DNA from: a virus
Lineage: Duplodnaviria; Caudoviricetes
Reading direction: 5' to 3' (one strand)
Virus record (IMG/VR): IMGVR_UViG_3300048574_000415
Coordinates: 1-53,163 of that record
DNA length: 53,163 bases
A program made the translations under genes and the position numbers. Every line of letters starts with the position of its first letter. Within the stretch, counting starts at the first letter, position 1. This document shows positions 1 through 52,746 of this stretch, piece after piece. A model generated the notes under the pieces. The model saw only the letters and a list, made by a program, of their open reading frames with translations. It was not told where the DNA came from and ran no database searches.

Positions 1-1461
1 TTATGGTCTAGCGAAGTCAACCAAATTCGAACTTTGCACCTCTTCAAAGGTGATATGCTTTATCCCCTCTTTGTAGTTAAATGTTAGTACCATCCTGTCA
101 TCGTACAGATAGATCGCGTTTACAAAGCAATCTATTAATCTTTGACACTGGTCTTTGTCGGAAACATCAATGCCCCTGAACTTATAGAGCCAGAACAATA
201 TCTGTTCCCGCGTCAGCAACGGCGCTTGTATTTCCTCCTGCATAATTGCTATCTCAAGGTCGCTCTTTTGTTCTTCAAGCTCATCCATCCTCCGTTTAGT
301 AGAAGAAGTTAAAACGCCCTGTTGAATCGCGTTAAGCAAATTCTCTATACCGTTCTCCGTGTCTGCAAGCTGCTTTTTTAAAAGAGGTAGTTGCGTGTTC
401 TCTTGTGATTGGAGCACGATAAGCTTATCCGCAAGTTGGTCCAGCAGAGTATCATTCATGAGTAGCTTCACTGTTTCGTCAATAACGAAATTTTCTATCC
501 ATTCTTTTTTAACCGTTTTCTTATTACAGCTTTTGGGCCTTTTCTTTGTGTTGGCGCACTTATAATAATGATAAACGATTTTCGTCTGGCTCGTGCCGCT
601 TTCGCCCACCATAAAAGCACCACACTCCCCACAGTGGAGCTTTGTCGTAAGCAGGTAGTCGTCCTCGGCTTTATGCCTCGCCGGGGCGCGGCGGTTCTTC
701 TCAAGGCGTTCCCGAACCTTGTCAAACAAGTCTTTTGGCACAATTGCCGGAATTCCATCCGGATTAACGACATTTCGATATTTATATTCACCGATATATT
801 TCCTGTTGTGAAGCATATGTGAAACAGTATTTAGGGTAATTCTTCCATTCCGCGCCGAAGAAATATTTTTTTCGTTCAGATAATTGACGATCTCTTGAAC
901 AGTATGGCCATCAGCATATTGGTTGAATACATTCAATACCACCGGCGTGGTTAATGGATCAAGCTGATAATATTGATCCGCGTCCACGGTATATCCGTAT
1001 GTAATGGTGCCGCCATTATATTTACATTTTAGGGCATTTTCCGTCATGCCGCGAATAACCTTCACCGCAAGTTCGGCGGAGTAATACTCCGCAAAACCTT
1101 CGAGCATGGATTCAAGGATAATGCCCTCCGGCCCGTCGGATATATTTTCTTTTGCGGATAACACTCGCACACCATTTTTGCGCAGAACATTCTTGTAATA
1201 CGCGGAATCGTATCGATTGCGGGCAAACCTGTCCAGCTTCCAGACAATCACCACATCAAACAAGTGTTTCGCGCTGTCCTTTATTAACCGCTGAAACTCT
1301 GGACGGTTGTCGGTTTTGGCTGAGTAGGCCCGGTCAATATACGTTCCGAAGATGGTTATTCCCTGTTTGTTCGCATATTCAGTGCACTCGCGTATTTGAC
1401 CTTCAATAGATTCTTCCCGCTGATTATCACTTGAATATCTCGCGTATATCACACCGTTCAT
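1..1461 (-). CDS. Large serine recombinase (resolvase + recombinase + zinc-ribbon domains)
   Basis: YARYSS catalytic motif, DRFARN, recombinase domain, CGECG...C zinc ribbon, coiled coil. Confidence 0.95.
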   Translation of the reverse strand: MNGVIYARYSSDNQREESIEGQIRECTEYANKQGITIFGTYIDRAYSAKTDNRPEFQRLIKDSAKHLFDVVIVWKLDRFARNRYDSAYYKNVLRKNGVRVLSAKENISDGPEGIILESMLEGFAEYYSAELAVKVIRGMTENALKCKYNGGTITYGYTVDADQYYQLDPLTTPVVLNVFNQYADGHTVQEIVNYLNEKNISSARNGRITLNTVSHMLHNRKYIGEYKYRNVVNPDGIPAIVPKDLFDKVRERLEKNRRAPARHKAEDDYLLTTKLHCGECGAFMVGESGTSQTKIVYHYYKCANTKKRPKSCNKKTVKKEWIENFVIDETVKLLMNDTLLDQLADKLIVLQSQENTQLPLLKKQLADTENGIENLLNAIQQGVLTSSTKRRMDELEEQKSDLEIAIMQEEIQAPLLTREQILFWLYKFRGIDVSDKDQCQRLIDCFVNAIYLYDDRMVLTFNYKEGIKHITFEEVQSSNLVDFARP

Positions 1462-1835
1462 TTCTTTCCCTCCTCAACCAAATCTAAGAGCATTTCTTTT
1501 AACCTTCTGTTCATAGGCGAGCCTTCCTCAAAACAGGCTGTGATAAATTCACTCCATTCCGCTTCCTTTTCCAGTTCCTTTTTTACCTCTCCCGGCTGGT
1601 AATCAAAATACTTTCCAAATGGTTTTTCTGTGCGGCAATAGATGTAGTCAAGGGATACGTTAAAATAATCCGCATACCAACGCAGAATATTGTATGGCGC
1701 TTCGGCATTTTCATTCTCATACCGATTCAGGCTTGACTGGGAAATCCCCATTTTGGCCGCAAGTGCAACCTGGGTGATATTTGCGTTATCGCGCAACAGT
1801 CTCAACCGTGCGCCTATAGTTTTTTCATTATTCAT
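1458..1835 (-). CDS. XRE-family HTH transcriptional regulator
   Basis: N-terminal HTH (ITQVALAAKMGISQSSLNRYE...FNVSLDYI); overlaps the recombinase start by 4 nt. Confidence 0.9.
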   Translation of the reverse strand: MNNEKTIGARLRLLRDNANITQVALAAKMGISQSSLNRYENENAEAPYNILRWYADYFNVSLDYIYCRTEKPFGKYFDYQPGEVKKELEKEAEWSEFITACFEEGSPMNRRLKEMLLDLVEEGKK

Positions 1836-1898
1836 AGCAATGCCGCCTTATGAAATTCTATAACAACATAATAACCTCTTTATCTAAATAGAGCAACC

Positions 1899-1926
1899 CT
1901 GCTATAGAATATTATTCTGCTATAGA
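1899..1926. promoter_or_regulatory. Candidate operator: CTGCTATAGA direct repeat x2 in the divergent promoter region
   Basis: Exact 10-mers at 1899-1908 and 1917-1926 between divergent regulators. Confidence 0.4.
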
Positions 1927-2019
1927 TATTAAAAAAATATTTCGAATTTCCCGGAACAATTTATATGTTCTGTTGACGTATCTAATTAGAACAACTAAAA
2001 TTGAAGAAGGGAGTGGCCT

Positions 2020-2934
2020 ATGAAGATACGGATATTATATCCCCAACAAAATAAAGCCGCAATCGTAGAACTCACAAATTTTGAGTTTTTGCCGCTTTTT
2101 TATCTATTCCCCGAAGAATTACTGAAAAAGGAATGCCCAAGCTTGGCAGGGATACCGCGCAGCGTCCACGGCATATTCACACAAAAAGAATGGATTGAAA
2201 AGCTCACCGGCGATTATTTTTTACAGGCAGTATGCGATCTGACCGCATACTTTGTTTGGCCGGCCTTTGGCATATCAACATATATGGAGTGCTTCTCAGC
2301 GTATGATCCGGTCTGGCGGCTTGCCCACGCCCTTCCAATCTGGCAAAAAGCGTTTGAGAATATGAGCGGCATAACACCTCAAAGCCTCGCCAATGCACTT
2401 AAAAAAGAACAAGAGTGGATAGAGCTAGATGAGTTCCAGAACATTTTTCTGCAAATTGGGCTTCATGGCATAATAGAAAATAACCTATTCCCTTGTATTC
2501 AGGCCGTGCGGGAAATGCGTTGCGCTGAGGATTACGACGTTCGCAATAGCAATGCAAAAATAGACTTCTATCGGAAATGGTATCATACCCGTTCAAATAT
2601 AACGTCAGTCTCTCTTGATTTTTTGATCGAAGCAAACAGAAGTGACCAGAATGATTCATCGATTCAGCTTAGCGATTATATCAGTGACTCAACCGCACAA
2701 TATGAAGATGCAATCTGTTCAAAATTAGATACCGAGAAGTTCTACCAAAACCTTACCCCGCTTGATCGCGAGATACTTGAGCTTCGGGTTAAGGGCTGTA
2801 CATATCAGGAGATCGCTGAGAAAACAGGTTTTAAAACGCACAGCGCCATACTGAAACGTATCAGCAGAATCACAGAAAGATATCTGGAATTTACCGATGA
2901 ACAGGAAGGACTACGTGAATTCCTAAACGGTTAA
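2020..2934 (+). CDS. Sigma-70 region-4-like DNA-binding protein
   Basis: C-terminal LTPLDREILELRVKGCTYQEIAEKTG HTH; good RBS. Confidence 0.7.
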   Translation: MKIRILYPQQNKAAIVELTNFEFLPLFYLFPEELLKKECPSLAGIPRSVHGIFTQKEWIEKLTGDYFLQAVCDLTAYFVWPAFGISTYMECFSAYDPVWRLAHALPIWQKAFENMSGITPQSLANALKKEQEWIELDEFQNIFLQIGLHGIIENNLFPCIQAVREMRCAEDYDVRNSNAKIDFYRKWYHTRSNITSVSLDFLIEANRSDQNDSSIQLSDYISDSTAQYEDAICSKLDTEKFYQNLTPLDREILELRVKGCTYQEIAEKTGFKTHSAILKRISRITERYLEFTDEQEGLREFLNG

Positions 2935-2949
2935 TATCATATTGTCACA

Positions 2950-2978
2950 GACGTTTCCCTAAACGGGAGGCGTTTTTT
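2950..2978 (+). terminator. Intrinsic terminator-like hairpin
   Basis: GACGTTTCCC-TAAAC-GGGAGGCGTT followed by a T tract. Confidence 0.55.
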
Positions 2979-3020
2979 AATTTCAAAAAAACCATTAAAA
3001 GAAAAGAGAGGTCACTATTT

Positions 3021-3905
3021 ATGGAATTGAAACTCGGAATCGACAACGGAAACTACAACACAAAATCCTCAGAGCGTATGCTCTACGCATCAGGCTTCAC
3101 GATGAGTGATAAGGAATTTATCACGGACGATATGCAGCTTTTTTATGAAGGTAAGTATTATGCTATCGGCGGGAAGCGTATGAGCTTTCAACAAGACAAG
3201 ACAAAGGAGGACGACGCCTTTATTTTATCACTTCCCGTCATTGCAGACGCAATGAAGCGGACAGATATCTCATCTGCTGAAATAGTTCTCGGCGTGGGAC
3301 TCCCCATCGATATTTACGGCACGCAGAAAGAAACCTTCCGAAAATACTTCCTGCGCGGAAGCGTCAGTTTTGAATTTGAAGGCATTTCATATTGCTGCCG
3401 GATCATGGACTGCAAGGTGTTTGCTCAAGGCCATGCTGCGCTCTGCAAATATTACCAGCCGCTAAAGGGATACAACAACATAACGCTCGTGGATATCGGC
3501 GGGTATACGGTGGACATTCTCACTCTGCATGACTTCAAGGCCGACCGTGGAAGCTGCGCCAGCCTGCGCATGGGCACGATTACGCTGTTCAATGCTATCC
3601 GGGAAGAATTGCAGCAGGAGAACATTATCCTCTCCGATACGTTGATTTCCGACGCTATGCAGGGACGCTTACAGCACGTGGATAAAGACAGGATTCAGGT
3701 TATCGTTGAGCGGCGTATGCGGCATTATCTCAGGGAATTGCTTAACGCGCTCCGCGAGCGCGGTCTTGATCTGAAGTTGCCCATGGTGTTTGTGGGCGGA
3801 GGTGCGGAATTGATCGGTAAGCGGCTATACTCAGGTGAGGTGAATACTATCGCTATTCTCGATCGTTTCGCCAACGCCGAGGGATATAAGCTCCTGTTGG
3901 GGTGA
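3021..3905 (+). CDS. parM: ParM/StbA-family actin-like partition ATPase
   Basis: Actin-fold motifs GIDNGNYNTK, VDIGGYTVD, FVGGGAE and ANAEG. Confidence 0.88.
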   Translation: MELKLGIDNGNYNTKSSERMLYASGFTMSDKEFITDDMQLFYEGKYYAIGGKRMSFQQDKTKEDDAFILSLPVIADAMKRTDISSAEIVLGVGLPIDIYGTQKETFRKYFLRGSVSFEFEGISYCCRIMDCKVFAQGHAALCKYYQPLKGYNNITLVDIGGYTVDILTLHDFKADRGSCASLRMGTITLFNAIREELQQENIILSDTLISDAMQGRLQHVDKDRIQVIVERRMRHYLRELLNALRERGLDLKLPMVFVGGGAELIGKRLYSGEVNTIAILDRFANAEGYKLLLG

Positions 3906-3909
3906 CGAA

Positions 3910-4203
3910 ATGCGTGAAAGACGATATCTGACGTTCGATATGGAAAACCCGCGTCACCGCGAGGCTTTCGTTCTTTTTTCGGCACAGTCCGGAAAGCGGC
4001 GCAGCGAATATGTGGTGGACTGCATCCTTCAGGCACGGCAGGAAAATCGTCTGGAGGAAACTATACGAAAGGTGTTGACAGAAGCGTTGAAGGACATTAC
4101 CTTACCCGCTCTCGCCATGGAGGGAAAAACGACAGAGTTACAGATGACGGAGAACCTGTCGGACCTGCCGGACGTGCTGCTGTCCTCGCTGGCCGAGATA
4201 TGA
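3910..4203 (+). CDS. Putative ParR-like centromere-binding protein
   Basis: Small ORF directly after parM with a basic N-terminus. Confidence 0.6.
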   Translation: MRERRYLTFDMENPRHREAFVLFSAQSGKRRSEYVVDCILQARQENRLEETIRKVLTEALKDITLPALAMEGKTTELQMTENLSDLPDVLLSSLAEI

Positions 4204-4353
4204 ACCATATTGGAGCATATTTCAACAATACGCAGCTGGAATTTGCACCACGATGGTGCATTTTTTTATTTTCAGCGAGTTGGTTTTGGGCGGGGATTTC
4301 GTAGAAATCTAACTGCCTTCCCAGCCTCGCAGAGCCCCGCGGGAGCGCCCACG

Positions 4354-4414
4354 GCACTTTGCAGGCGTCAGCCTGAAAGTGTCATAGTGGGTAATGCACT
4401 TCCTCCGGAAGTGC
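4354..4414 (+). other. oriT/RSA-like site of the MobV relaxase
   Basis: Inverted repeat GCACTTT-G-CAGGC/GCCTG-AAAGTGT, then ATAGTGGGTAAT (resembles the MOB_V TAGTG(T/G)G|TTA nick motif), then GCACTTCC-TCC-GGAAGTGC, just upstream of the relaxase. Confidence 0.7.
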
Positions 4415-4454
4415 CCGTCCCCCAGACGTCGATGATGAAAGGAAGTGATGCTGT

Positions 4455-5675
4455 ATTTCGAAGGTTGACCGCACAGTTGTGAGAAACAAAGCGTATCCAC
4501 GTAATAACTTCTCTATTCGTGAGCGTCACAATGAACGCAAAAATGAAATCTATTCAAATCCGGATATCGTGCAGGAAAGAAGCCACCTCAATTTCTCGTT
4601 CAAAAGCTGCGATGGCACATATACACAGGCATTTGATCAATTGCTTGAAGAAGGAACGATAAGCACACGCGGATTGAAACCGGATGCGGATGTGTTTGCT
4701 GAAATGGTGTTCGATGTGAATACTTCGTACTTTGACGAGCACGGCGGCTATGATTACGCAAAGGATTTCTTTTCCATAGCGTATAGGATGGCCGTGCAGG
4801 AGGTGAGCGGAGAGCAATATATTCTTTCGGCTGTTATGCACGCCGACGAACGCAACAAGAGCCTGTCAGAGGAGTTAAATCGGGATGTTTACCACTATCA
4901 TCTGCACGTAGTATATATCCCTGTGGTGGAGAAGGAAATACGCTGGACAAAGCGCTGTAAGGATAAGGCGCTTGTTGGCACAGTGAAAGAGGTGATCCAT
5001 CAGGTCAGTCACTCAAAAAAGTGGGCGTCTATAAAGGCTGTGGACGAAAAAGGCGAACCAATACGGGCCGAAAATGGTAAAGCCGTTCTGATACCATCTT
5101 ACTCGTTATTACAGGACAAGTTCTATGAGCACATGACGGAAGCGGGTTTTAAGGGCTTTGAGCGGGGTATTCGCGGCAGTACAACCCAGCACCTGTCTGT
5201 TCTTGATTACAAGATACAGCAGGATAACGAAAAGCTGGCACGCATCGAAAAGCAAGTGGATGAACAACAGAAGGAACTGGTTTCTGTATCTGAACAGTTG
5301 ACCGTAGAGCGCCAAATCAACAAAACGTTCCATGAGCTTGATGAATTGGGCCGGAAAAAGATGTTCGGCAAGGTTGAACTGGCCGAGAAAGACTATAAGG
5401 AGGTGATATCGCTCGCAAAGGAAGGCGTTCTTTCCCGCAGAAAGATATCTGATCTGACACAGCAGCTAGACAAAGCTACATGGCGTATATTTGATTTGCA
5501 TAGAAGTTGGGAACAACTCTATGAGCAGACAAGCGAATTCCGGCAGGCCTTAAAATTAGCCCCGCAGCGCGTGAAGGAAGTATTTGCGGAGATATTCTTG
5601 CGCGATAAAGAGGAACGAGAAGCGCGGCGTAATATGCGCCGCAATGTGAAAAATCGCGAAGAGCGCGAAAGGTGA
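4455..5675 (+). CDS. mobV: MobV/Pre (plasmid recombination) relaxase; probable ATT start
   Basis: RHNER, AVMHADE and HYHLHVVYIP motifs with a coiled-coil C-terminus. The frame extends to ATT at 4455 after an AAAGGAAGTGA RBS (track start is GTG 4479). Confidence 0.9.
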   Translation: MSKVDRTVVRNKAYPRNNFSIRERHNERKNEIYSNPDIVQERSHLNFSFKSCDGTYTQAFDQLLEEGTISTRGLKPDADVFAEMVFDVNTSYFDEHGGYDYAKDFFSIAYRMAVQEVSGEQYILSAVMHADERNKSLSEELNRDVYHYHLHVVYIPVVEKEIRWTKRCKDKALVGTVKEVIHQVSHSKKWASIKAVDEKGEPIRAENGKAVLIPSYSLLQDKFYEHMTEAGFKGFERGIRGSTTQHLSVLDYKIQQDNEKLARIEKQVDEQQKELVSVSEQLTVERQINKTFHELDELGRKKMFGKVELAEKDYKEVISLAKEGVLSRRKISDLTQQLDKATWRIFDLHRSWEQLYEQTSEFRQALKLAPQRVKEVFAEIFLRDKEEREARRNMRRNVKNREERER

Positions 5676-5736
5676 TCTTTGACAACTTAATATGGAGGTT
5701 AAACCGGTATGCAGCAGTTAAAAAGGAGCGGGTATC

Positions 5737-5916
5737 ATGTCCGCTGACAAGAAAATTCCCGATATTCCCCAGGATGTGATTGAATCTTTAGCAAGAACGA
5801 TACTCCCATCCATACGAAATTATTTCGACAGCGATGAAGGGCAACAGGAGTTCACAGAGTGGAAAAAGCAAAAGGACAACGAACAGGCAGCAGTGGAAAC
5901 TATTAAACCTAAATAA
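5737..5916 (+). CDS. Small hypothetical protein (59 aa, MSADKKIPDIPQDVIESLARTILP...)
   Basis: AAGGAG RBS; ORF just below the track cutoff; resembles small proteins that follow MobV in clostridial IMEs. Confidence 0.75.
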   Translation: MSADKKIPDIPQDVIESLARTILPSIRNYFDSDEGQQEFTEWKKQKDNEQAAVETIKPK

Positions 5917-5920
5917 CATG

Positions 5921-5956
5921 AGCGGGAGAGCCGAATTTTTCGGTTCTCCCGCTTTT
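5921..5956 (+). terminator. Intrinsic terminator
   Basis: AGCGGGAGAGCCGA...TCGGTTCTCCCGCT followed by T tract. Confidence 0.8.
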
Positions 5957-6146
5957 TCCTTTGGCAGGTCATTACTATTTATTGAATTTAGTTTTTACTC
6001 ATGCTAAATTAATATATATATTTCAATTTATTTAGCCATACAATCAATTAGCCACATAGGGGTTAAAGCATAAGTCGCAGGCAATCAGTGATTAAGGGCG
6101 CTTACAATACGCTATTCAATATTTGTGGAAGAGAATGGGATATCCA

Positions 6147-7580
6147 ATGGAAGTAAAAAACGATATAAAACGACAAATTTGTTTCAATAACCGGAAGTTA
6201 TCCATAGTCGTTGTCTCTCTTTTTTCTGCCTGGTTGCTGTCCGTTCCGTTTGAAGGCAGGATATTGTACGCTTTGTTGGATTCTTATTTGGTTCCCTCCG
6301 AACCATTTGTTTTAGGTGCTATGGCCGCTCACTGCGCCGGGCTCATCCTCTGTGGCATCTTTGTGAAAACAATGCGACAGGCCAAACGGCTGATACTCAT
6401 ATCCACTGTCTTTTGCATCGTCGCCTCCACCGCGTTCTTCTTCCCACCTTCGTTTTTATGGAAGGCGGCGCTTTTTTCATCTTCATTCCTGGTTGGCTGT
6501 TGCGTGGCGGCATGGGGCTATTTTCTAAAAAGCGGCACTCCGAAGGAGGAACGCATCAAAACCATCGCGGATATGCTTATCTTTACCTACGTTCTGTCGA
6601 TACTGCTTGGCAAGGCGGCTATTGATATTTCCTGTCAAATAGGGCTGGCGCTGTCAATGCTGCTGCTGGGCGTTGCCTTCGTGTTTGCGCTGAAGCTCCC
6701 TGAGCAGGATTTCTCAAAAAGACCTCCGCCCGCTCCGCCGTCGGAGAAGCCCGTGAGCATTAAAAAGCCTCTTGCCTTCCTGTGCCTTTTCATCCTGACC
6801 GTTGCGCTCAATGTGGGGCTAATGTTTCATGTGCAGGCTCCCGCTTTCGCACACCTTGAATGGCTGGCAGGCTGGTATTGGGTCGTTCCCTACATCATGG
6901 CTGTGCTAATTGTTCGCAACCTGCCGCGTAAGGTCAATCGCTCCTATATTCTCTATGCCAGTATTGCTATGACCGGATTCTCATTTATTGCATTTATTTT
7001 AATGGATCGGTCGGCGGTAAGTTACCTCGTCGTGGATACCCTGATGCTGGGGGCCTTTGGTATATTCAACCTGTTCTGGTGGACAATACTGGGTGAGATA
7101 CTGTCGTTTCATCAAAATCCCGCAAAGGTTCTTGGTATAGGACTTTCCGCCAATGTACTTGGGGCGATGATTGGTGCGATCATCGGAAACGCGGTGGCAC
7201 ATGGTAGCGGGCAGGAGCTTTTACTGTTGGCTCTTGGCGTGGTATGCGTCGCTCTTGTGCTGTTGCCTCCGCTTTACGCGCGACTTGCTATTCTGCTGAA
7301 ACATCATGCCTATATGGCGGCGTTTTCCGAGATACCGCCGCAGGAGCAAAAACGACTGATATGCGATTTTGGGCTCGAACAAAAGCTTACGGAGCGCGAG
7401 CGGGAGATTGCCTCCCTGCTGCTAACAGGTAAAACGTACCAAGTGATTGCCAAAGAGCTTTGTGTGAGTGAAAACACCGTTAAGACCCATGCAAAAAACG
7501 TTTACGCAAAGGTCGGAGTTCATAACCGGACAGAGTTGATGAACCGCCTGCTTAAAATCAAAGCTCCTTTGATTGAGTAA
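6147..7580 (+). CDS. Multi-pass transmembrane sensor fused to a LuxR-type HTH
   Basis: About 12 hydrophobic segments then LTEREREIASLLLTGKTYQVIAKELCVSENTVKTH; start may be 6123, 6135 or 6147. Confidence 0.9.
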   Translation: MEVKNDIKRQICFNNRKLSIVVVSLFSAWLLSVPFEGRILYALLDSYLVPSEPFVLGAMAAHCAGLILCGIFVKTMRQAKRLILISTVFCIVASTAFFFPPSFLWKAALFSSSFLVGCCVAAWGYFLKSGTPKEERIKTIADMLIFTYVLSILLGKAAIDISCQIGLALSMLLLGVAFVFALKLPEQDFSKRPPPAPPSEKPVSIKKPLAFLCLFILTVALNVGLMFHVQAPAFAHLEWLAGWYWVVPYIMAVLIVRNLPRKVNRSYILYASIAMTGFSFIAFILMDRSAVSYLVVDTLMLGAFGIFNLFWWTILGEILSFHQNPAKVLGIGLSANVLGAMIGAIIGNAVAHGSGQELLLLALGVVCVALVLLPPLYARLAILLKHHAYMAAFSEIPPQEQKRLICDFGLEQKLTEREREIASLLLTGKTYQVIAKELCVSENTVKTHAKNVYAKVGVHNRTELMNRLLKIKAPLIE

Positions 7581-7606
7581 TAAAAACACAAACAATTGCT
7601 CCCGCT

Positions 7607-7640
7607 GAGCCCTTCATCACTTACAGATGAGGGGCTTTTT
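7607..7640 (+). terminator. Intrinsic terminator
   Basis: GAGCCCTTCATC...GATGAGGGGCTTTTT. Confidence 0.7.
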
Positions 7641-7648
7641 GTATAAAA

Positions 7649-7692
7649 TCACCCGATTGGGTGACGAAACTCAAAATTCAAGTGCTTATAAT
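7649..7692 (+). promoter_or_regulatory. Palindromic activator box TCACCC-N4-GGGTGA plus TATAAT -10
   Basis: Perfect inverted repeat at 7649-7664, TATAAT at 7687-7692, no canonical -35. Confidence 0.55.
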
Positions 7693-7772
7693 GAGAGAGA
7701 AAAATTGAAAACCCCAGGCAAACTACCAAGTAATTAATCAATTTATTTATTTTACAAATATTGGAGGAGAAC

Positions 7773-9425
7773 ATGAAAACACGATTTTTAAGCTTTTTTA
7801 TTGGAGTCCTGATGATTATGGCTATATTCGGCATACCGTCCACCGCTATGGCCAACACTGCCTGGGACGGCAGCACACGGGATATAAGCTGGTATACAAA
7901 CAATACCTCGGCCGTGTATTACACTATCAACACAGGTGCACAACTCGCCGGGCTTGCGCAGCTTGTAAACGAGGGTAACGATTTTACCGGAAAGACCGTT
8001 GCCCTCACACAGGATGTCGATCTCGGCTCACACAACTGGACGCCGATCGGAACGAATGCCCATCGGTTCAATGGGACTTTCGATGGCAGCGGGAATGATA
8101 TTGCCGGCCTTTGGATCGGTACATCCGGTTCGCCTGATGCGACGCTGGAAGTCTTAGGGCTGTTTGGTAATGCTGGCGCCAACGCCGAGATCAAAAATAC
8201 CGGCGTTGATGCGGCCATTTATTCGTCTAAGAACAACGCATGTGCTGGCGGTATTGCGGGTGCAAACAGCAGCATGATCGTCAACTGTCATGTATCCGGA
8301 ACAATATCTGCTGGAACCGGCTGGACGAGCGCCGGCGGCATTGTGGGGTGCACTTATTCAAATGCGATTGAGAACAGTTACGCTACCGCTGCAGTCAGCG
8401 GCTTCGAGGCAGGTGGAATAGTGGGATGGGCTTATGGCGGCGCCATGAAAAACTGCTATGCTGCCGGAACAGTAACGACCGGAACCGCGCCGGGAACTTC
8501 TGTGTCAGGTGATGCGGGCGGCTTGATCGGCTGTATACAAAATAATAATTTTATTATCATAAACTGTTATTGGAATACCAACGCAATGGCAACAGCTGTC
8601 GGCTTGGGGACAAGCAGCTATACGTATAATATGGCCGGCCTGTCTGAGGCCGTAATGAAAGGAACGGATACGTCCAGTATTACGTATATCATTTCTCCGA
8701 CCAATATGAACTCTAATGCGAAGACCCCAAACGGAGATCCATATCCTTTTCTTACAGCCCTAAACGGTGGAAGGAGCGTAATACCTTCTATCGCGGACGG
8801 CACTCCGGTTGAGAAATGGATAGCCTCAAGCGGTGGGTATCCAATATTTGCCGCCACCCTGGCGGCGCCAGTATCGGTAAAGGTTGTCTCCGCATCTTAC
8901 AACAGCATCCAGATTACGTGGAACAACGTGCCCGGTGCAAGCGGCTACGAAATCTGCCGTGCCAACTCCAAAACAGGCGCCTACACCAAAGTCTATACGG
9001 CAATATCGGGCAGCACGGTAGTCTGCAAGAATACGTCTCTTACTACTGGCAAAACGTATTATTACAAGATACGTGCCTACAGGACAGTTAGCGGCAAGAA
9101 GGTCTACAGCAGCTATTCCGCGGTGAAATCCGCAAAACCAGTCCCCGCTGCGCCGTCAATCACCGTAAAACCGGTCTCTTCCACCAGCATCAAGATATCG
9201 TGGAAGAAAGTGTCCGGCGCAAGCGGCTATGAGGTCTGCCGTGCCAACTCCAAAGCGGGTTCCTATAAGAAGGTAACCTCCATAAATAAAGGCACAACAC
9301 TAAACTATACCAACAAGAGCCTGACGAAGGGCAAAACCTACTATTACAAGATACGTGCCTATAGGACGGTCAGCGGCAAGAAGGTCTACGGCAGCTATTC
9401 GCCCGTGGTCTCCGGCAAAACGTAA
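7773..9425 (+). CDS. Secreted GLUG-motif beta-helix protein with two C-terminal fibronectin type III domains
   Basis: Signal peptide, WTPIG...FNGTFDG, GGIVG repeats, two FN3 units (W..V.GASGYE...L..GKTYYYKIRAY). Confidence 0.85.
   Translation: MKTRFLSFFIGVLMIMAIFGIPSTAMANTAWDGSTRDISWYTNNTSAVYYTINTGAQLAGLAQLVNEGNDFTGKTVALTQDVDLGSHNWTPIGTNAHRFNGTFDGSGNDIAGLWIGTSGSPDATLEVLGLFGNAGANAEIKNTGVDAAIYSSKNNACAGGIAGANSSMIVNCHVSGTISAGTGWTSAGGIVGCTYSNAIENSYATAAVSGFEAGGIVGWAYGGAMKNCYAAGTVTTGTAPGTSVSGDAGGLIGCIQNNNFIIINCYWNTNAMATAVGLGTSSYTYNMAGLSEAVMKGTDTSSITYIISPTNMNSNAKTPNGDPYPFLTALNGGRSVIPSIADGTPVEKWIASSGGYPIFAATLAAPVSVKVVSASYNSIQITWNNVPGASGYEICRANSKTGAYTKVYTAISGSTVVCKNTSLTTGKTYYYKIRAYRTVSGKKVYSSYSAVKSAKPVPAAPSITVKPVSSTSIKISWKKVSGASGYEVCRANSKAGSYKKVTSINKGTTLNYTNKSLTKGKTYYYKIRAYRTVSGKKVYGSYSPVVSGKT
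8880..9420 (+). repeat. Tandem duplication of the FN3-coding unit (~280 bp)
   Basis: Near-identical DNA blocks such as CCGGTGCAAGCGGCTACGA/CCGGCGCAAGCGGCTATGA and TATTACAAGATACGTGCCTA. Confidence 0.8.
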
Positions 9426-9671
9426 GCTTTTGAAACAAAGCAAGCCATCGTGTGATAGTAAAGGGCTGAGCTCGAATATCAACAGCCCTTTATTTATTGG
9501 AAGAAGGTTTTGATTTGCAGTCTGAAAACAAAAACGTTTACAGTATTGGTGTTTATTAATATACTTGTTATATAAACTTTGATCATACAAACAATACTCA
9601 CTAGAATTTCATAAATATAGGTAATCCATTTCAATATCTTAACAAACATCTTTTGATAGGAAGTGTTCAGC

Positions 9672-12185
9672 ATGAATTGTTCAAAATGTGGAAAAGAAAT
9701 TACACCGGGCGATGGCTTTTGCGCATATTGCGGGGCGAAGGCGGACACGGCCGTTGCCTTCTGCATGGCTTGCGGTGAAAAAATAGATTTAGGAGCCGCC
9801 TACTGCCGGAAGTGCGGAAAAGCCGTCCATGGCCTGCCCGCGGGCGTACAACCAATCGGCCCGTCTGCAAAAGGTCCAAAACCCAAGGGCGGCAGGAATA
9901 AAAAGAAGAGCGTCCTCTTTATCTCCATCGCCTGTGTCCTAGCCGCTGGCCTCATCGTTGGCACACTGTTGGTCTTTCTGCCCGTCAGTCCGGCCTCCGG
10001 GCCCGTGACAGGAAGTCTAAAGCTTGGGAAAGAAATGTCTCTCGCCGATGCGCAAATTGGAACGAATGGCGGTACGATCACAATTGACAACCGGGATTCC
10101 GCGCTTAACGGGATGCAGATTATCGTGCCGGGAGGAGCTTACGGCGAAGAGATCGAGTTTGAAATTTCCGGGCAGGAGATCGAATCCCATACCTTCGGTG
10201 GTCTGTTCCATCCCGCCACACCGCTGATTACGGTAAACAACGGCCACGGGTTCGCCGCGGAGCCCATGACGCTAAAGGTGCCGGTCAAGATTGAGGCGGA
10301 TGAGATCGCGGCGGCATTTTACTATGACAAAGACAAGGGTACGCTGGAGGGGATTCCCTGCGTTGCGCAGGATGGTGATTCCATCACGCTTATGACCAGC
10401 CACTTTTCCTGTTTTGTGATCACCAAGGAAAAGATTGAAAAGCTGGACAGCCTGGTGCGGGATAAGCCTCTCGAGACTGGATTCAAGCCCGGTAAGGACG
10501 ATTTTTACGCGCCCAACTACGGGAGCTATGTCCGTCCCGGCGGGCATTGTGCCGGCCAGTCGATCGCCGAAATCCATTACTATAATATGTACGGTCGAAG
10601 CGACCGCCACCTGCGTCAGGAACCTATCGTAGACAACGACCAGTACGATGCGACGAAAGAGTTGTACTGGGATGATTCACTTGGAATCCGGCTTTGCTCT
10701 CTGATGCAGGACTATTATAGCAAGGACTGGTATAAAACCTATGATGATTTGCGCTACGTCAACGAAGACCTCACCTATTACTATTTCTTATATACCATTG
10801 CAATGAGCCACGAGCCGCAGGAAGTCAGTATTAAAACAGCTGATTTCAGCATCGGCCATGCCATGGTTGTTTATAAAATATCCCGGAATGCCATCTGGTT
10901 TGCGGACCCCAATTATCCCGGCGATACTGACAGAAAGATAGCGGTTACCCACTGGTTGAACCCGGAGAAGGACAGGGAGACTGCCGAGCTTGGCGTATAC
11001 GAAACGAAACCCCGGGCGGACGGTACAATAGAAAAGTTTACGTGGGTGGGCTATTACGGCATTTATTCACTTGTTAATTATGATGTAGTGAACAGCGCTT
11101 GGAAGTCTTTGCTGGCGGGCCAGGATCCCGCCGCCTCAATTTTCCCGCCTCATAACACCTATAAAGCATACACGAACACCGACGACCAAGGCGTTCCGAT
11201 CGCGGTTCAGCTTGATTCAAATACGCCGCTCCATGTCAACCGGCAGGAGCTGGCGAAGGTCAACCCAAGCCTTAACCCGAACGGAGATATACTGTTCATA
11301 CAGCGAGGGAATCAAACAGATTACGGGGAATGGGATTTTTATCTTGGTGATCAGAAAACAACGCCGATCGAATACGCCAATCAGCCTGGTAATATTTGGT
11401 ACAGTATACGACTGAAGCCGGGCGTAAATGACCTCGGAATCCTGTATTTTCGGTACAATTACAATACAAAGAATAGTGAGTTTGATAATTTTCAGAGGTT
11501 TACCGTGATTTTGGACGAAGATGAGGAGGTGTCTACATCTACCGAGACACCCGCTCCAACCGAAGCGGCTGCGGCGGATTTCACGGGCAGCTGGCAGCTT
11601 TATACGAATAAGCTTTTAAAGGTTCAGGGCAACGAGGTTACAATGAACTATATTAATGATTTGTTTAATAAATACGGTAACGACGTCGTTATGGGTTCCA
11701 ATATCAAATATAAAAGTTTGGAGGAATACATCAGCATCAACAGTAAAGATTATGTACGTGGATTAATTGAATTTGAGAAAAAGCATCTGATCATAACTAA
11801 AAACGCTGACGGAAAATATACCGTGGAAATAAGCGGATATCAGCTTAGAACCCAAGGCGATAAGCAGACAAAAGTGCCATATAAGGAAGTGTACGGCCAG
11901 GTGGAGGTCTCGGAAAATAAAATCATTTTCCAAAAACCCGAAGACGCTGTAGAATATATGGGCAGAGACGCGTTTGAACTGTCGCTTGACGGTAATACGC
12001 TCTCCGGATTTATGTATGTGCCTTTTTATCATCCATATGCAAATCGTGATGATGTTCTTAAAACAGCGGATGAAAATTCTACTCTACCCGGAATGCCCAA
12101 TGTTGAAACGGCGTCTTTCGGCGTTCCGGAAGGCTACAACCCGGAGAGGGTCTGGAGCTTCGAAGCAGTGCGGGTACAGCAATAA
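9672..12185 (+). CDS. Double zinc-ribbon membrane protein with a large extracellular region
   Basis: CxxC x4 at the N-terminus, one TM helix, then ~730 aa predicted to be extracellular. Confidence 0.8.
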   Translation: MNCSKCGKEITPGDGFCAYCGAKADTAVAFCMACGEKIDLGAAYCRKCGKAVHGLPAGVQPIGPSAKGPKPKGGRNKKKSVLFISIACVLAAGLIVGTLLVFLPVSPASGPVTGSLKLGKEMSLADAQIGTNGGTITIDNRDSALNGMQIIVPGGAYGEEIEFEISGQEIESHTFGGLFHPATPLITVNNGHGFAAEPMTLKVPVKIEADEIAAAFYYDKDKGTLEGIPCVAQDGDSITLMTSHFSCFVITKEKIEKLDSLVRDKPLETGFKPGKDDFYAPNYGSYVRPGGHCAGQSIAEIHYYNMYGRSDRHLRQEPIVDNDQYDATKELYWDDSLGIRLCSLMQDYYSKDWYKTYDDLRYVNEDLTYYYFLYTIAMSHEPQEVSIKTADFSIGHAMVVYKISRNAIWFADPNYPGDTDRKIAVTHWLNPEKDRETAELGVYETKPRADGTIEKFTWVGYYGIYSLVNYDVVNSAWKSLLAGQDPAASIFPPHNTYKAYTNTDDQGVPIAVQLDSNTPLHVNRQELAKVNPSLNPNGDILFIQRGNQTDYGEWDFYLGDQKTTPIEYANQPGNIWYSIRLKPGVNDLGILYFRYNYNTKNSEFDNFQRFTVILDEDEEVSTSTETPAPTEAAAADFTGSWQLYTNKLLKVQGNEVTMNYINDLFNKYGNDVVMGSNIKYKSLEEYISINSKDYVRGLIEFEKKHLIITKNADGKYTVEISGYQLRTQGDKQTKVPYKEVYGQVEVSENKIIFQKPEDAVEYMGRDAFELSLDGNTLSGFMYVPFYHPYANRDDVLKTADENSTLPGMPNVETASFGVPEGYNPERVWSFEAVRVQQ

Positions 12186-12260
12186 AACATATGTGGCACA
12201 TTGAAAGAATTCAAAATATATGTGCGTATCCAAAACAAAAACAGTTTAAGGAGGAATCTC

Positions 12261-12827
12261 ATGAAACATCAAATTCTGTCTGAAATTAGGGAAAAGCTAT
12301 CGGCGCTGGGTGTTCCGGTTCAATACGGAAACGGAGCCGATATCACAATTAATACTGAATTTCTCGATGCGCGATGGAGCACGGGAAGCAAAAAAACAAG
12401 CTACGAAGCGTCGGCCTTTGCGGACGAACGTGAGCGTGTACTCTATATGTACGAGAAAACAACGGAGACAGGACAGGGGCTGTCCTTTGGCATGAGCGGC
12501 GAAACGTCGTTCCAAAGCGGCATCACGCTTTATCGCAAGGTGAAAAGCGTCCAGTACGGTCCCGATGGCAAGGCGTATGAATATTCCCTTGATCTGGGCG
12601 CCATTTCCAAGACAGTCAAGGAAGCCGCGAAACGTAACGGATGGAAGTTTAAAACAGTGCTGAGTAAAAGCAAAGCCATGTATCCGGCCGGATATGCGCC
12701 TGAGACTGTACAGCAGCCCTTGCAAAGGCCGAATACCGTAGACGTTTTTTGTACAAAGTGCGGCGCGCAACTTATGGAGGGTGCACAGTTTTGCAGCAAA
12801 TGCGGAAAACAGACAGGTATTCAGTAA
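12261..12827 (+). CDS. Zinc-ribbon domain protein (C-terminal CTKCG...CSKCG)
   Basis: AAGGAGG RBS; zinc ribbon motif. Confidence 0.8.
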   Translation: MKHQILSEIREKLSALGVPVQYGNGADITINTEFLDARWSTGSKKTSYEASAFADERERVLYMYEKTTETGQGLSFGMSGETSFQSGITLYRKVKSVQYGPDGKAYEYSLDLGAISKTVKEAAKRNGWKFKTVLSKSKAMYPAGYAPETVQQPLQRPNTVDVFCTKCGAQLMEGAQFCSKCGKQTGIQ

Positions 12828-13019
12828 TAGCTCGTTATCCGCTGACATCTGTAAGAAAGAAGGGTTGTCAAACAGCAGGAGGGTTGTCCTGACCCTGTGC
12901 ATGCATATGATGGAAAAAAGATTGAATCCGCTTGTGTTAATAGATAAAAAGAGGCAATTAATCCTCTTTGAATCTTTTTTGCTTTTATCCGCATATGATC
13001 TCGCAAAGTACGATTTCCT

Positions 13020-13248
13020 CTGGTCACGCAATTTCAATTCTTCGGTAATGCTCTGCTTCTGGGCGATCTGTTGTGTCAGTTCCCATATGCGCTCTTTAAC
13101 ACGGCCATCGACTTCAGCAAGGTATTCATCCAGACCAGCCGAGAAAAGGAGCTGTGTGTAAAGCTCCTGCCGTTCGCGCTTGATAAATTCAAGCCGCATT
13201 CCTGCAGTATCTACCAATCCCCAGTGTGTTGCAATGATAATCTTTCAT
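13020..13248 (-). pseudogene. tnpV: TnpV-family protein, frameshifted and 3'-truncated
   Basis: AGGAGG-ATG MKDYHCNTLGIGRYCR, one extra base, then MRLEFIKRERQELYTQLLFSAGLDEYLAEVD...ITEELKLRDQ; similarity ends there. Confidence 0.75.
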
Positions 13249-13296
13249 TTTGGGCACCTCCTATACTTCTTATAAAAGGTGCCGAAATAAATAACA

Positions 13297-13334
13297 AATC
13301 CGAACCCTTCCCCGATTAGGAAAAAGTTCGGATT
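13297..13334. repeat. Inverted repeat AATCCGAAC...GTTCGGATT at the IME end
   Basis: 9-bp arms immediately downstream (minus strand) of the tRNA CCA end. Confidence 0.7.
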
Positions 13335-13342
13335 ATCATGGT

Positions 13343-13391
13343 TTGGTCTGGGTGAGAAGATTTGAACTTCCGGCCTCTTGAACCCCATTCA
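13343..13391 (-). repeat. att core copy 1: 3' half of tRNA-Pro(GGG)
   Basis: TGAATGGGGTTCAAGAGGCCGGAAGTTCAAATCTTCTCACCCAGACCAA, identical to 50350-50398; no tRNA 5' half adjacent. Confidence 0.95.
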
Positions 13392-13430
13392 AACGCACAG
13401 CGCCTATTTAAGCCATAAACTGGGGATAGT

Positions 13431-13448
13431 GATACTTGTGTGATACTT
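13431..13448 (+). other. Putative integrase arm-type sites (GATACTT x2, 11-bp period)
   Basis: The same motif and spacing recur at 50244-50261 near the other att. Confidence 0.65.
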
Positions 13449-14526
13449 ATTGCAGCTGGTCAATAGCACTTTTAAGATCATCAAGCTGTTTATGAATATA
13501 GACTTTTTTCGTCATTTTATAATCCGTATGGCCCATGATTAACTCTTTTACTTTATCTGTAGCGTTTACTTTATCTAGCATCGAAGCGAATGTATGCCTG
13601 GTGGAATGCGGGGTAAGCTTACGGGCTTTATGATCTATGCCAAGATCACTGATGCATTCTTTAAAGCTGTCTCTAAAATATGTTTCCGAATATTTTGTAC
13701 CGTCATCCTTGCAAAATATGACCTGCCCTTTTTTTGAAAGCCACTTTTCTATTATCGGCTTTATTTTCTTATGCACAGGAACGACGCGATCATATCCGGC
13801 CTCGGTCTTAATGCCTCCGGTCAAAGTGCCAGCTGCAGCGTCATAGGAAAATGGGGTAAGTGTGATAAATTCTGTCAGGCGAAACCCGGTATAAATCATC
13901 ACCATAATAAATTCTGCAAACCGGTTCCCATCTGCCGCGGCGTTTTCGATTGCCTTTATTTCCAGATCGGTAAAAGGGTTACGCTTCACGCGCTCTTTCT
14001 GTACAGTAAAAACAAGGTGCTTTGCGTAATTCTGCCGCACAATATCATTTTGCAACGCGTAATCAAAAAGCTGTATAAAAAGCGCCTTAATCTTTTCGGT
14101 GGTCGATCTGCTTTTTTTAGAATCCGCATCATCAATAATCTTTTGCATAATATTTGTGCGGATATCCCTGACTTCCATGTCTTTGATAGCATCCATGTAC
14201 TTCCAGGCGGCGCGGTAGTTGTTTTCGGTATCAATGGAAATCACGCGCTGGATAACGCCGTCTTTTTCTATCTCTTTATATTTATTCTTGCTCCATTCCA
14301 TATAAAGCGCATCCAGTGTGATACCGGCATTCGGGACAGGATTATCATAATAATCTGAAAGCGCTTTAATAGCGGACGGCTTATCTGCATACCAACCGAT
14401 GAATTTATAAATCTGCTTTTTATATTCATCCCAGCCGACAGTAACGCGAGCCGCCCATGGTTTGCGCCGTTTGCCCTTTAATTTGTAAACAGATCCATAG
14501 CCATTTGGATTCCTGATTTTAAACAC
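13447..14526 (-). CDS. int: Tyrosine integrase
   Basis: RNPNGYGSVYKL N-terminus, TGFR, K, HSTRH, MGH, Y catalytic residues. Start is likely GTG 14526 or ATC 14517 rather than 14628. Confidence 0.95.
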   Translation of the reverse strand: MFKIRNPNGYGSVYKLKGKRRKPWAARVTVGWDEYKKQIYKFIGWYADKPSAIKALSDYYDNPVPNAGITLDALYMEWSKNKYKEIEKDGVIQRVISIDTENNYRAAWKYMDAIKDMEVRDIRTNIMQKIIDDADSKKSRSTTEKIKALFIQLFDYALQNDIVRQNYAKHLVFTVQKERVKRNPFTDLEIKAIENAAADGNRFAEFIMVMIYTGFRLTEFITLTPFSYDAAAGTLTGGIKTEAGYDRVVPVHKKIKPIIEKWLSKKGQVIFCKDDGTKYSETYFRDSFKECISDLGIDHKARKLTPHSTRHTFASMLDKVNATDKVKELIMGHTDYKMTKKVYIHKQLDDLKSAIDQLQ

Positions 14527-14629
14527 ATCACTTTCTTTTATTAGCTGCTTATTCTTTTTCGGTTGACCATCTACAATTACTCGGTTTTTACCGCGCTTAC
14601 CAGAAAAATGTTTTGCAGGTAATAACAAT

Positions 14630-19021: not shown

Positions 19022-19099
19022 GGAGGAATAGCGCAGACTAGGTAGCGCACATGCCTTGGGCGCATGGGGCCGCAGGTTCGAATCCTGCTTCCTCCACCA
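19022..19099 (+). tRNA. tRNA-Pro(UGG), phage-encoded, CCA encoded
   Basis: Full cloverleaf: GGAGGAA/TTCCTCC, GCGC D-stem, CATGC-CTTGGGC-GCATG, GCAGG-TTCGAAT-CCTGC, ACCA. Confidence 0.95.
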
Positions 19100-34312: not shown

Positions 34313-34639
34313 ATGGAAAAGCATGAAATATACAAACAAGAACATGAGAGATTGATAGAGATATTTGGAAATATTGAGGAAGATAAAAAGAAATTTGTTA
34401 ATGGGCTGATAGATGATGCCGCCTTTTTGTATGCAGAAAACGCAGTTTTAAAAGCTGGAATGGCTGAAACAGGCATGATTAGGGTGCATCCGAATTATCC
34501 GGATAGGCAAAAACCGACTGAAGCGGCCAAACAATACCTAAAAAATGTAAATTCATATGCCGTTGTAATGAAAACATTAAACGGTATCCTTAATAAAGCA
34601 GGCAATGAAGAGGATGATGAACTAGGGGATTATCAATGA
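34313..34639 (+). CDS. Terminase small subunit (cos-type position)
   Basis: LIDDAAFL...G....HP..P..QK.T...KQY; overlaps the TerL start. Confidence 0.7.
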   Translation: MEKHEIYKQEHERLIEIFGNIEEDKKKFVNGLIDDAAFLYAENAVLKAGMAETGMIRVHPNYPDRQKPTEAAKQYLKNVNSYAVVMKTLNGILNKAGNEEDDELGDYQ

Positions 34640-36383: not shown

Positions 36384-37649
36384 TTGGCAATTAAAGAATT
36401 TTTTGATTCAATATTTCCATCAAGAAAAGTTGGACGTTATTTGCGCATACTTGATGGGAGAACGCCAGTATTTTCGCAATTTGGAACAAATATATATTTT
36501 TCAGATATTGTTCAAAATTGTATTGATAGAACAGCAACTGAATGCTCAAAGCTACAGCTTCAGCATATCAGAATAGACAATAAAACCAGGCAACAAGAGA
36601 TAGTAAATGGTTCATTCAACAGGTTATTTAAATTTGCGCCTAACCCGCTTATGACAACAGCTGATTTTATTGAAAAGATAGTGTGGTTGCTTTATCTTAA
36701 TTACAATGTTTTTATTTATCCTGTTTATGATGTTAAATACGATAGAGACGGACAGCAATATAAAGAATATAAAGCTTTTTATCCATTGAATCCAAAACAG
36801 GTTACATTTATGCAAGATGAACAAAACAAAATATTTTTAGAATTCATCTTTGCAAGCGGAGATAAATATACACTTTCTTATACTGATGTTATTCATATTC
36901 GAAAGAAATATTCAATGTCGGATATAATGGGCGGTGGATTAAACGGCCAGCCTGATAATACGCCATTGCTTAAAAGGCTTGAAACAAATGACATAGTTAT
37001 TCAAGGCATTGCGAAAGCAATCAAAACAAGCCTTAGCATAAAGCTTGTTGCAAATATAAAAACAATGTTTGACACACCAGAAATGAGAGCCGAAAGAAAA
37101 CGATTTGAAGACGAACTTGAACGTGGTAATACAGCAATACTGGCGGCAGATTTAAAAAGTGATATTACACCAATAAATATTGATCCAAAATTAATAGATG
37201 ATGCGACATTAAAGTCAATTGAAGGTGGAATTTTAAGATGGTTTGGAATGTCTTTCCCAATATTATCTGGTGATTATAGTGAAGACCAATATCAAGCTTG
37301 GTTTGAGCAAAGCATAGAACCATTTATGAATAAGCTTGGACAGGCCTTTTCTATGACTATTTTAACACAACGACAACAAGATTATGGTAATGAAATAAGA
37401 GCTTATCATAATAGGCTTGAATATTTAACTATAAAATCAAAAAATGAAATAGTTAAAATAGCAGGTGAACAAGGCCTTTTGACCAGAGATCAGAAGCTCG
37501 CCATATATGGGTTTCCACCTATTGGCGGTGATGATGGCGCAGTTATTGATAAAAGCTTAAATTTTATAAACATAAAAATTGCAGATCAATACCAATTGCA
37601 AAGCCTAAAAAAACAAAAGGAGGTTACAACAAATAATGACAAAAATTAA
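36384..37649 (+). CDS. Portal protein (HK97-like)
   Basis: Position after TerL; PNPLMT, VIHIR motifs. Confidence 0.92.
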   Translation: MAIKEFFDSIFPSRKVGRYLRILDGRTPVFSQFGTNIYFSDIVQNCIDRTATECSKLQLQHIRIDNKTRQQEIVNGSFNRLFKFAPNPLMTTADFIEKIVWLLYLNYNVFIYPVYDVKYDRDGQQYKEYKAFYPLNPKQVTFMQDEQNKIFLEFIFASGDKYTLSYTDVIHIRKKYSMSDIMGGGLNGQPDNTPLLKRLETNDIVIQGIAKAIKTSLSIKLVANIKTMFDTPEMRAERKRFEDELERGNTAILAADLKSDITPINIDPKLIDDATLKSIEGGILRWFGMSFPILSGDYSEDQYQAWFEQSIEPFMNKLGQAFSMTILTQRQQDYGNEIRAYHNRLEYLTIKSKNEIVKIAGEQGLLTRDQKLAIYGFPPIGGDDGAVIDKSLNFINIKIADQYQLQSLKKQKEVTTNNDKN

Positions 37650-50349: not shown

Positions 50350-50398
50350 TTGGTCTGGGTGAGAAGATTTGAACTTCCGGCCTCTTGAACCCCATTCA
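50350..50398 (-). repeat. att core copy 2: 3' half of tRNA-Pro(GGG)
   Basis: Identical 49 bp to 13343-13391; the flank is not a tRNA 5' half. Confidence 0.95.
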
Positions 50399-52426: not shown

Positions 52427-52514
52427 TGTATGGATATATTAAAAGACTACGGCTTCCGCTCTCAGATAACGAGGGCTTTTTTTATACCCATTTTAGGAAG
52501 CGGGTGATTGTCAG

Positions 52515-52730: not shown

Positions 52731-52746
52731 AGGAGCGTAGAAATTT

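Follow-up and report, generated by a model that had tools for sequence, protein, structure and literature searches.

A large serine recombinase gene that appears to span its own attachment site in tRNA-targeting mobilizable elements of Clostridia

We analysed a window of 53,163 nucleotides, IMG/VR record IMGVR_UViG_3300048574_000415, which is classed as a provirus. Positions 4-13343 of this window are an integrative mobilizable element (IME), and the following reading of it is, taken as a whole, likely to be right. The element would belong to a large family, found in Clostridia, that inserts exactly at the 3' CCA of tRNA genes, between the tRNA and its terminator. Its large serine recombinase (LSR), of ~480 aa, would have an attachment site (attP) straddling the last codons of its own gene. 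The P half-site would be the final 30 nt of the gene, a copy of the target tRNA's T-loop, acceptor stem and CCA displaced outward by 5 bp, and the P' half-site (N9 + AATCCGAAC) would lie at the other element end, doubling as the 5' arm of a terminator-like hairpin. Upon integration, the tRNA would be followed by the hairpin of the element and the recombinase by the old terminator of the tRNA, with a stop codon taken from the flank; in the circle, or in a tandem array, the recombinase open reading frame (ORF) would cross the hairpin and stay in frame for 20-50 codons. When the element is circular, translation of this C-terminal tail may keep the hairpin from terminating transcription and open a second hairpin that masks the ribosome site of tnpV, with tnpV made only when the element is excised or in tandem. 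Behind an untranslated tRNA, the terminator hairpin would insulate the element. As read from sequence comparison, the insertion, the att site and the in-frame tail are properties of the family. An earlier note, made from the letters of the window, had proposed an att site over the last codons of the recombinase, with excision swapping in a defined C-terminal tail, and this anatomy recurs in the same register in relatives. With attP inside the gene, the free and integrated forms encode different C-termini, one of the two traits of integration-dependent gene switches of the Mx8 or mycobacteriophage type.

Element ends and attachment-site geometry

The minus-strand ORF at 1..1461 (486 aa) ends in GCT AGA CCA TAA, as the earlier note had read it. 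Relatives with 57-85% protein identity were fetched from genomes (80) and metagenomes (80), and the conserved protein end could be placed in 134 of the 160. It is the proline codon CCA in 133 of the 134 placed junctions, after which sequences diverge abruptly: of the 341 pairs that share at least 88% identity in the final 300 nt of the gene, 324 fall below 50% identity in the 100 nt that follow, 5 take an intermediate value and 12 reach 90% or more. The stop codon of the recombinase is therefore supplied by the flank. Similarity between the window and its four closest relatives (80-85%) extends from ~5864 down to positions 4, 4, 1 and 23, breaking off at position 4 in L082 and L003, and three different sequences follow the recombinase in these four. 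The proposal that the stop codon lies outside the element thus holds for the relatives, in which the break after CCA is abrupt, but the flank origin of the TAA is not visible in the window, as the left flank of the element was lost when the record was trimmed at a gene boundary. The first base of the window belongs to the stop codon of the recombinase ORF and the last base to another stop codon, so position 1 is a trimming boundary and not a biological end. This boundary, together with the weakness of a 6-mer match on its own, could be taken to mean that the window ends at an ordinary stop codon by coincidence, that the element extends further left and that the AGACCA match arose by chance. 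Such an artefact is very improbable, given that hundreds of pairs break off sharply at CCA, that tRNAs stand at the other end and that host tRNA terminators follow the recombinase.

The sequence behind the recombinase is, to judge from its pattern and from paralogous sites, the old terminator of the tRNA. Most flanks combine an A-tract, a hairpin and a T-tract. In genome G004, the module following the CCA of the L025 recombinase also stands directly 3' of the CCA of tRNA-Leu(caa) and tRNA-Arg(ccg), and directly after two more tRNA-like ends elsewhere in the genome; a similar paralogous flank occurs in genome G001 (L032). The empty site whose recovery the earlier note had suggested was not met in orthologous form, although paralogous sites within the same genomes proved informative: in the genera of G002 and G004 the neighbouring gene was found with no tRNA within 1.5 kb (10 loci), and no empty site was present among the fetched loci themselves. 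A far end derived from the near-identical pair L119/L122 was rejected, as its boundary lay inside coding DNA and marked a mosaic break, not an element end. In G004, a terminator module of ~95 nt (GACTGAGTCTGGACGC...) recurs immediately after the ends of at least four tRNAs or tRNA-like sequences (L184-L187).

At the other end of the element stands a tRNA. AGACCA recurs at 13349-13344, where, as had been noticed before, it closes a tRNA-like 3' part. In many loci, ARAGORN detected a tRNA 4.5-10.8 kb upstream, on the same strand as the recombinase, and the CCA of a same-strand tRNA directly abuts a conserved element start in 15/15 loci examined, plus the window. This start consists of nine bases, AATCCGAAC, a loop, GTTCGGATT and a T-rich tract. 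The tRNAs at the examined loci are Leu (cag, tag, aag), Val(gac), Pro(ggg) and Trp, and among the matches listed from viral contigs the same arrangement occurs for tRNA-Tyr, Lys, Val(cac) and Leu. The final bases of the recombinase gene match the acceptor end of the adjoining tRNA (GCACCA for Leu; TCCACCA for Val; GGACCA or AGACCA for Pro; CTGCCA for Trp). The CCA-N9-AATCCGAAC hairpin is also common in IMG/VR, with 68/80 loci in register among the matches listed (L188-L267), so many such elements are filed as viral.

GGTTC lies 30 nt from the junction in P (the recombinase gene), 25 nt in B (the tRNA T-loop) and 19 nt in P' (an inverted copy at the element start). Mimicry of the T-arm by the recombinase 3' end, already pointed out for the window, amounts to 15/21 matching bases, offset 5 nt further from the CCA. 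Across 124 distinct gene ends, GTTCGGAT stands at -29..-22 in ~98%, with ACCA at the end. The spacing of P and B fits the 5-bp shift reported for phiC31, in which the motif bound by the zinc-ribbon domain (ZD) lies 5 bp closer to the centre in attB than in attP (10.1101/2025.05.02.651858). The core common to attP and attB measures 6-10 bp, with the crossover somewhere inside it. Since the P half-site lies in the coding end, the conserved C-terminal peptide (G-S-D-L/I ... A/G-x-P) is a translated tRNA mimic. No recognisable B' half-site, and with it no partly symmetric attB, emerged from the 124 distinct flanks (at most 0.39 bits at any position). The recombinase may recognise essentially one half-site, the T-arm and acceptor of the tRNA, and accept any far-side sequence; we put this forward jointly with the sensor role discussed below, and the pair together is possible but doubtful. 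We also considered the hairpin as an attP with the crossover in its loop, which was rejected: every complete hairpin lies at the tRNA end, and none follows a recombinase that is integrated singly.

The tail of the circular form, its hairpins and tnpV

From 13343, the minus strand reads NHDNPNFFLIGEGFGFVIYFGTFYKKYRRCPK*, that is 32 codons and a TGA at 13247-13245, exactly as had been proposed; the region also carries the P' half-site. Frame 0 from the element start is open for 22-43 codons in 29/29 elements (21 distinct tails), and frames 1 and 2 mostly close within 10 codons. Tails in viral contigs are in the same register and comprise at least 20 codons among the matches listed. A full recombinase ORF reads into the hairpin in at least eight viral contigs, the hairpin motif directly follows the recombinase CCA in L009, L138 and L147, and at least one of the long-form cases is a tandem array with two recombinases. 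Tandem arrays were seen at L009, L017/L090, L059, L138/L147, L067, L159 and L022 and in G278, the element-start hairpin lying either directly, or a few hundred bases to kilobases, behind the recombinase CCA of another element; several of these hairpin copies have frame-breaking loops of 12, 18 or 21 nt.

The hairpin at the element start scores as an intrinsic terminator (-25.1 kcal/mol, z -3.93). Its outer helix is 98.7% paired and nearly invariant, and its inner helix has compensatory changes in 5/7 pairs. Where a hairpin is paired with an intact downstream recombinase, its loop measures 20, 23, 29 or 32 nt (30/30 distinct cases), lengths that keep the reading frame. The frame is broken in 12/83 hairpin copies that are unpaired or undetermined, a class that takes in reverse-strand duplicates and truncated loci (Fisher p 0.034 against the paired copies). 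This modest evidence suggests coding constraint on the tail. In every element, the stop codon of the tail lies beyond the hairpin and its T-tract, an arrangement that would also be expected if the hairpin terminated transcription before the stop, leaving a circle mRNA without a stop codon and a recombinase tagged by transfer-messenger RNA (tmRNA) and degraded. Integrated copies, whose ORFs often enter a host terminator too, would then escape or not according to the position of the stop codon in the flank. We consider such non-stop control quite improbable: there seems little sense in destroying the enzyme at the very moment when integration requires it, and a ribosome trailing the polymerase usually keeps a terminator hairpin of this kind from forming.

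A defined tail is found only where element ends are joined. Integrated tails range from 0 to at least 150 codons with a median of 18 (111 distinct flanks), and their frame is indistinguishable from the other two (Mann-Whitney p 0.55). The claim that the circle encodes a long recombinase and the integrated form a short one must be amended accordingly: the defined tail predicted for the circle stands, but the short form is peculiar to the copy in the window, as integrated tails are random. The enzyme that excises the element evidently works with arbitrary extensions. This bears on the explanation favoured in the earlier note, that the tail alters the stability of the recombinase or tips it towards integration or excision. 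A defined hydrophobic tail (..GFGFV[IV][FY]..) is in frame across groups with different tRNA targets, and the same idea was put forward for the recombinase DsiB in McMurdie et al. (PMC3146451). On the other hand, excision has to be carried out by proteins with arbitrary tails, which argues weakly against a protein switch, and tail residues other than those encoded by the hairpin are not conserved between groups. We regard it as unlikely.

The reading set out at the beginning assigns the tail a role in the expression of tnpV. In the window, the TGA of the tail overlaps the ATG of tnpV (ATGA), supporting the recombinase-tnpV link proposed earlier, and tnpV also follows the tail in the tRNA-Leu elements L008, L022 and L101, a group in which it starts ~18 nt past the tail stop. 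The second hairpin, which pairs the Shine-Dalgarno (SD) sequence of tnpV, is more stable than expected, with 0/200 shuffles equally stable. Weaker analogues occur in L022, L101, L299 and L301, with z -2.7 and -1.6 in the tRNA-Leu group. We therefore speculate that the att-spanning frame may act as a sensor of element state. With the ends joined, translation of the tail would suppress termination and melt the anti-SD hairpin, switching tnpV on by translational coupling; behind an untranslated tRNA, the hairpin would terminate and tnpV would stay silent. Held jointly with recognition of a single half-site, this sensor is a tentative proposal that we would not expect to hold. A third copy of the recombinase-arm motif (TATCCGAAC) is present at ~+63 to +71 from the element start in L008, L017, L022 and relatives of the tRNA-Leu group, where it is also the anti-SD strand.

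Several observations weigh against the reading developed here. Random integrated tails seem to imply that arbitrary C-terminal extensions are tolerated. The NPN..IG.GFG motif that the earlier note had suggested searching for does recur in relatives, but NPN and FGF are encoded by the two hairpin arms, so most conservation of the tail is structural and its value as coding evidence is confounded. In L242, the recombinase ORF enters a hairpin with a 19-nt loop, which shifts the frame into an unrelated tail of 64 codons. The circle joint was sought in Logan contigs of four public runs (containing 0.48, 0.29, 0.27 and 0.14 of the sampled words), and no joint of positions 4 and 13343 was found in contigs of these runs, which cannot reveal rare forms. 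Neither the left flank nor the parent contig was recovered among the 160 genome and metagenome loci, the best relative being 85% identical; with the left flank of the window missing, the origin of its TAA has to be deduced from relatives. No second exact copy of the recombinase end of the window was found in the viral contigs searched. Furthermore, tnpV is frame-shifted in the window and was not seen behind the tail in the other ten elements examined, and the SD hairpins of L101, L299 and L301 are no better than shuffles (z -1.0 to -1.6). An AlphaFold model of TnpV (9-sequence alignment; predicted local distance difference test [pLDDT] 85.6) had no PDB match at Foldseek E <=0.001, and a role as directionality factor could not be assigned to TnpV.

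In an alternative hypothesis, the att overlap is a by-product. The P arm must mimic the tRNA 3' end and hence overlaps the gene, the tail, although translated in the circle, has no function, and the hairpin is solely a terminator of the tRNA transcript and a carrier of the P' binding motif. Tolerance of integrated tails that do not differ from the other frames, an NPN...FGF motif that follows from the hairpin arms and the lack of tnpV behind the tail in most groups all speak for it. It accounts less well for the frame kept in every paired hairpin but not in every other copy, for stops that always lie past the T-tract of tails at least 20 codons long, and for the window itself, in which the tail stop overlaps the ATG of a tnpV whose SD is predicted to be sequestered. 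We judge this by-product a real possibility, if somewhat short of an even chance.

The element, its neighbours and the source record

The features of the window are collected in Table 1. The recombinase has the domain set of an LSR (PF00239, E 7.5e-32; PF07508, E 4.6e-19; PF13408, E 3.3e-13), and no second resolvase-domain match was found among 12 element ORFs scanned. The element also encodes a sigma-70 region-4-like protein. Its tnpV matches the Pfam TnpV domain (E 1.5e-13) despite the frameshift; the ATG frame closes after 19 codons, and a related contig has one base fewer at 13199, within tnpV. A two-way terminator-like hairpin lies at 12948-12969, between the end of tnpV and a convergent zinc-ribbon gene. 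In a contig of run X13, 13372-13064 is joined to 342-148 with six extra letters, a derivative that has lost nearly the entire interior and kept both ends.

Table 1. Features of the 53,163-nucleotide window
Positions	Strand	Feature	Remarks
1..3	-	TAA stop of the recombinase in the integrated state	Presumed flank DNA, start of B' side
4..9	-	AGACCA core common to the tRNA end	Holds the crossover dinucleotide somewhere within it
4..33	-	P half-site of attP inside the coding sequence (AGTTCGAAT...GCTAGACCA)	Mimics tRNA T-loop, acceptor and CCA; 5 extra bases
4..1461	-	Large serine recombinase, 486 codons	Resolvase, Recombinase and Zn_ribbon_recom domains
1458..1835	-	Xre-type helix-turn-helix regulator	Stop overlaps recombinase start (ATGA)
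3021..3905	+	ParM/Alp-like actin (partition or maintenance)	Domain match
4479..5675	+	Mob_Pre (MobV-type) relaxase, mobilization gene	E 1.8e-34
5864..12827	+	Cargo: LuxR-type, GLUG/fn3 and two zinc-ribbon proteins	Not common to closest relatives
12951..13249	-	tnpV, frame-shifted	ATG 13249-13247; TnpV domain in another frame, 12951-13217
13245..13343	-	Tail reading frame, 32 codons and TGA	Continues the recombinase ORF only in circle or tandem array
13253..13283	-	Second hairpin GGCACC...GGTGCC, pairs tnpV SD	-21 kcal/mol, z -5.25
13297..13334	-	Conserved terminator-like hairpin, 17 pairs then T-rich tract	9 nt after tRNA CCA
13344..13391	-	48-nt 3' part of tRNA-Pro(GGG)-like gene	B half-site of the element and one prophage att repeat
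13392-50350		Prophage, ~37 kb	Bounded by exact 48-nt direct repeats of tRNA-Pro(GGG) 3' part
13447..14628	-	Tyrosine integrase of the neighbouring prophage	Outside the element; domain match
19022-19099		tRNA-Pro(TGG) of the prophage itself	
34636-36369		Prophage TerL	
36384-37649		Prophage portal	
38295-39524		Prophage capsid	
50351..50398	-	Second exact 48-nt tRNA-Pro core, then terminator	Other att repeat of the prophage
50698-51543		ParA	Right of second 48-nt repeat
51491-52426		ParB	Right of second 48-nt repeat
52747-53163		DUF3846 gene	Right of second 48-nt repeat

The IMG/VR record probably merges three elements: the mobilizable element, a prophage, which also encodes an NlpC/P60 protein, and, from 50399 to 53163, what is probably the start of a third integrated element of conjugative type. 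The tRNA-Pro fragment recognised in the earlier note is indeed a tRNA-Pro 3' part, but its exact 48-nt twin at the far end of the neighbouring prophage had been missed. Neither copy is part of a complete tRNA; in a search of Rfam, the only tRNA match was sub-threshold and at 13355-13415 (18.1 bits against a gathering score of 29 bits), with none at the second copy. Since the 48-nt repeats flank the prophage, the element is located at the displaced original 3' end of tRNA-Pro(GGG). In three genomes of close relatives, 4/5 far ends of the AGACCA pattern likewise lie at tRNA-Pro 3' fragments of 47-58 nt and not at a full tRNA, and the fifth (L303) retains just ~24 nt of the tRNA. The tRNA-Pro(GGG) locus of Christensenellaceae genome G284 (contig 1, 2,644,000-2,701,300; L299-L303, L311) comprises a full tRNA-Pro(GGG), an insert of 4.9 kb, a relative of the element measuring 21.9 kb together with its tRNA fragment, and two further tRNA-end copies.

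Relation to known systems

An att site inside the recombinase gene has consequences for annotation, as it explains both the ragged C-termini that gene callers assign to such recombinases and the mis-set boundaries of proviruses and islands at such loci; the record studied here, trimmed at the recombinase stop and with three elements merged, is an example. It also marks out a family of serine recombinases, widespread in Clostridia of guts and digesters, whose target, a tRNA 3' end, is predictable from sequence and can be read from the last codons of the recombinase's own gene. The apparently unconstrained far side of the target bears on target choice in LSRs. Finally, the family offers a concrete handle on an idea dating from 2011, that a serine recombinase gene with an att site in it may report to the element whether it is integrated or free. 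The literature searched held no account of the split ORF of this recombinase family. A 2025 survey describes Faecalibacterium IMEs at tRNA genes, and its supplementary tables may list members (PMC12084326).

Switches in which integration rewrites the 3' end of an attP-spanning gene are known from Mx8 intP/intX, SSV1 int and the integration-dependent immunity of mycobacteriophages. In these systems, the affected proteins are tyrosine recombinases or a repressor, and effects on function have been demonstrated; in the present family, the gene encodes a serine recombinase, the integrated tail is random and the switch is putative, proposed from sequence features. The earlier note had named only tyrosine integrases and phage repressors as precedents, and the list should be extended to serine recombinases. 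In the ssrA islands of Dehalococcoides, the stop codon of DsiB is described as lying only outside the island, and DsiB may be fully functional only on the circle or beside another island (McMurdie et al. 2011, PMC3146451).

The element shares its domain set with the integrases of phiC31 and LI, as described in 10.1101/2025.05.02.651858, along with a ZD motif 5 bp further out in attP and a short core. Unlike these, its B half-site is the T-arm and acceptor of a tRNA, its B' side is unconserved (124 distinct flanks) and its attP lies inside the integrase ORF. According to the account in PMC5704250, IMEs whose serine recombinases have high site specificity disrupt dispensable genes, and no directionality factor is known for them. 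Tn4451 and Tn4453 (TnpX, TnpV, TnpZ), covered in the same source, resemble the element as mobilizable elements of Clostridia with an LSR, a MobV relaxase and TnpV; Tn4451 is given there as having low target specificity and a 2-bp identity at its ends. In circular order, tnpV lies directly downstream of the recombinase gene in both. The joint of Tn4451 is upstream of tnpX and creates a promoter, whereas here it falls within the 3' end of the recombinase gene and insertion is directed at a tRNA CCA end, so that the likeness does not extend to target or joint.

The closest parallel is DsiB. As reported for the Dehalococcoides islands, it too is a serine recombinase encoded on an integrative mobilizable island, with the 3' end of the tRNA-like tmRNA gene as target; its gene overlaps att at the 3' end with the stop codon outside the element, and the islands occur in tandem (PMC3146451). 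DsiB is, however, a CcrB homologue with a small partner, DsiA, and integrates in ssrA; the element in the window showed no such partner among its 12 scanned ORFs and targets a tRNA. In the published description, dsiB adjoins ssrA on the complementary strand with its 3' end toward it, the repeat is 20 bp and insertion is in the T-loop. Here, the recombinase lies at the tRNA-distal end on the same strand, insertion follows the CCA, and the other element end supplies a conserved in-frame tail and a terminator hairpin. The family differs from DsiB in orientation, tRNA-CCA target, tRNA-mimicking coding end and in-frame hairpin tail, and probably in recombinase lineage.

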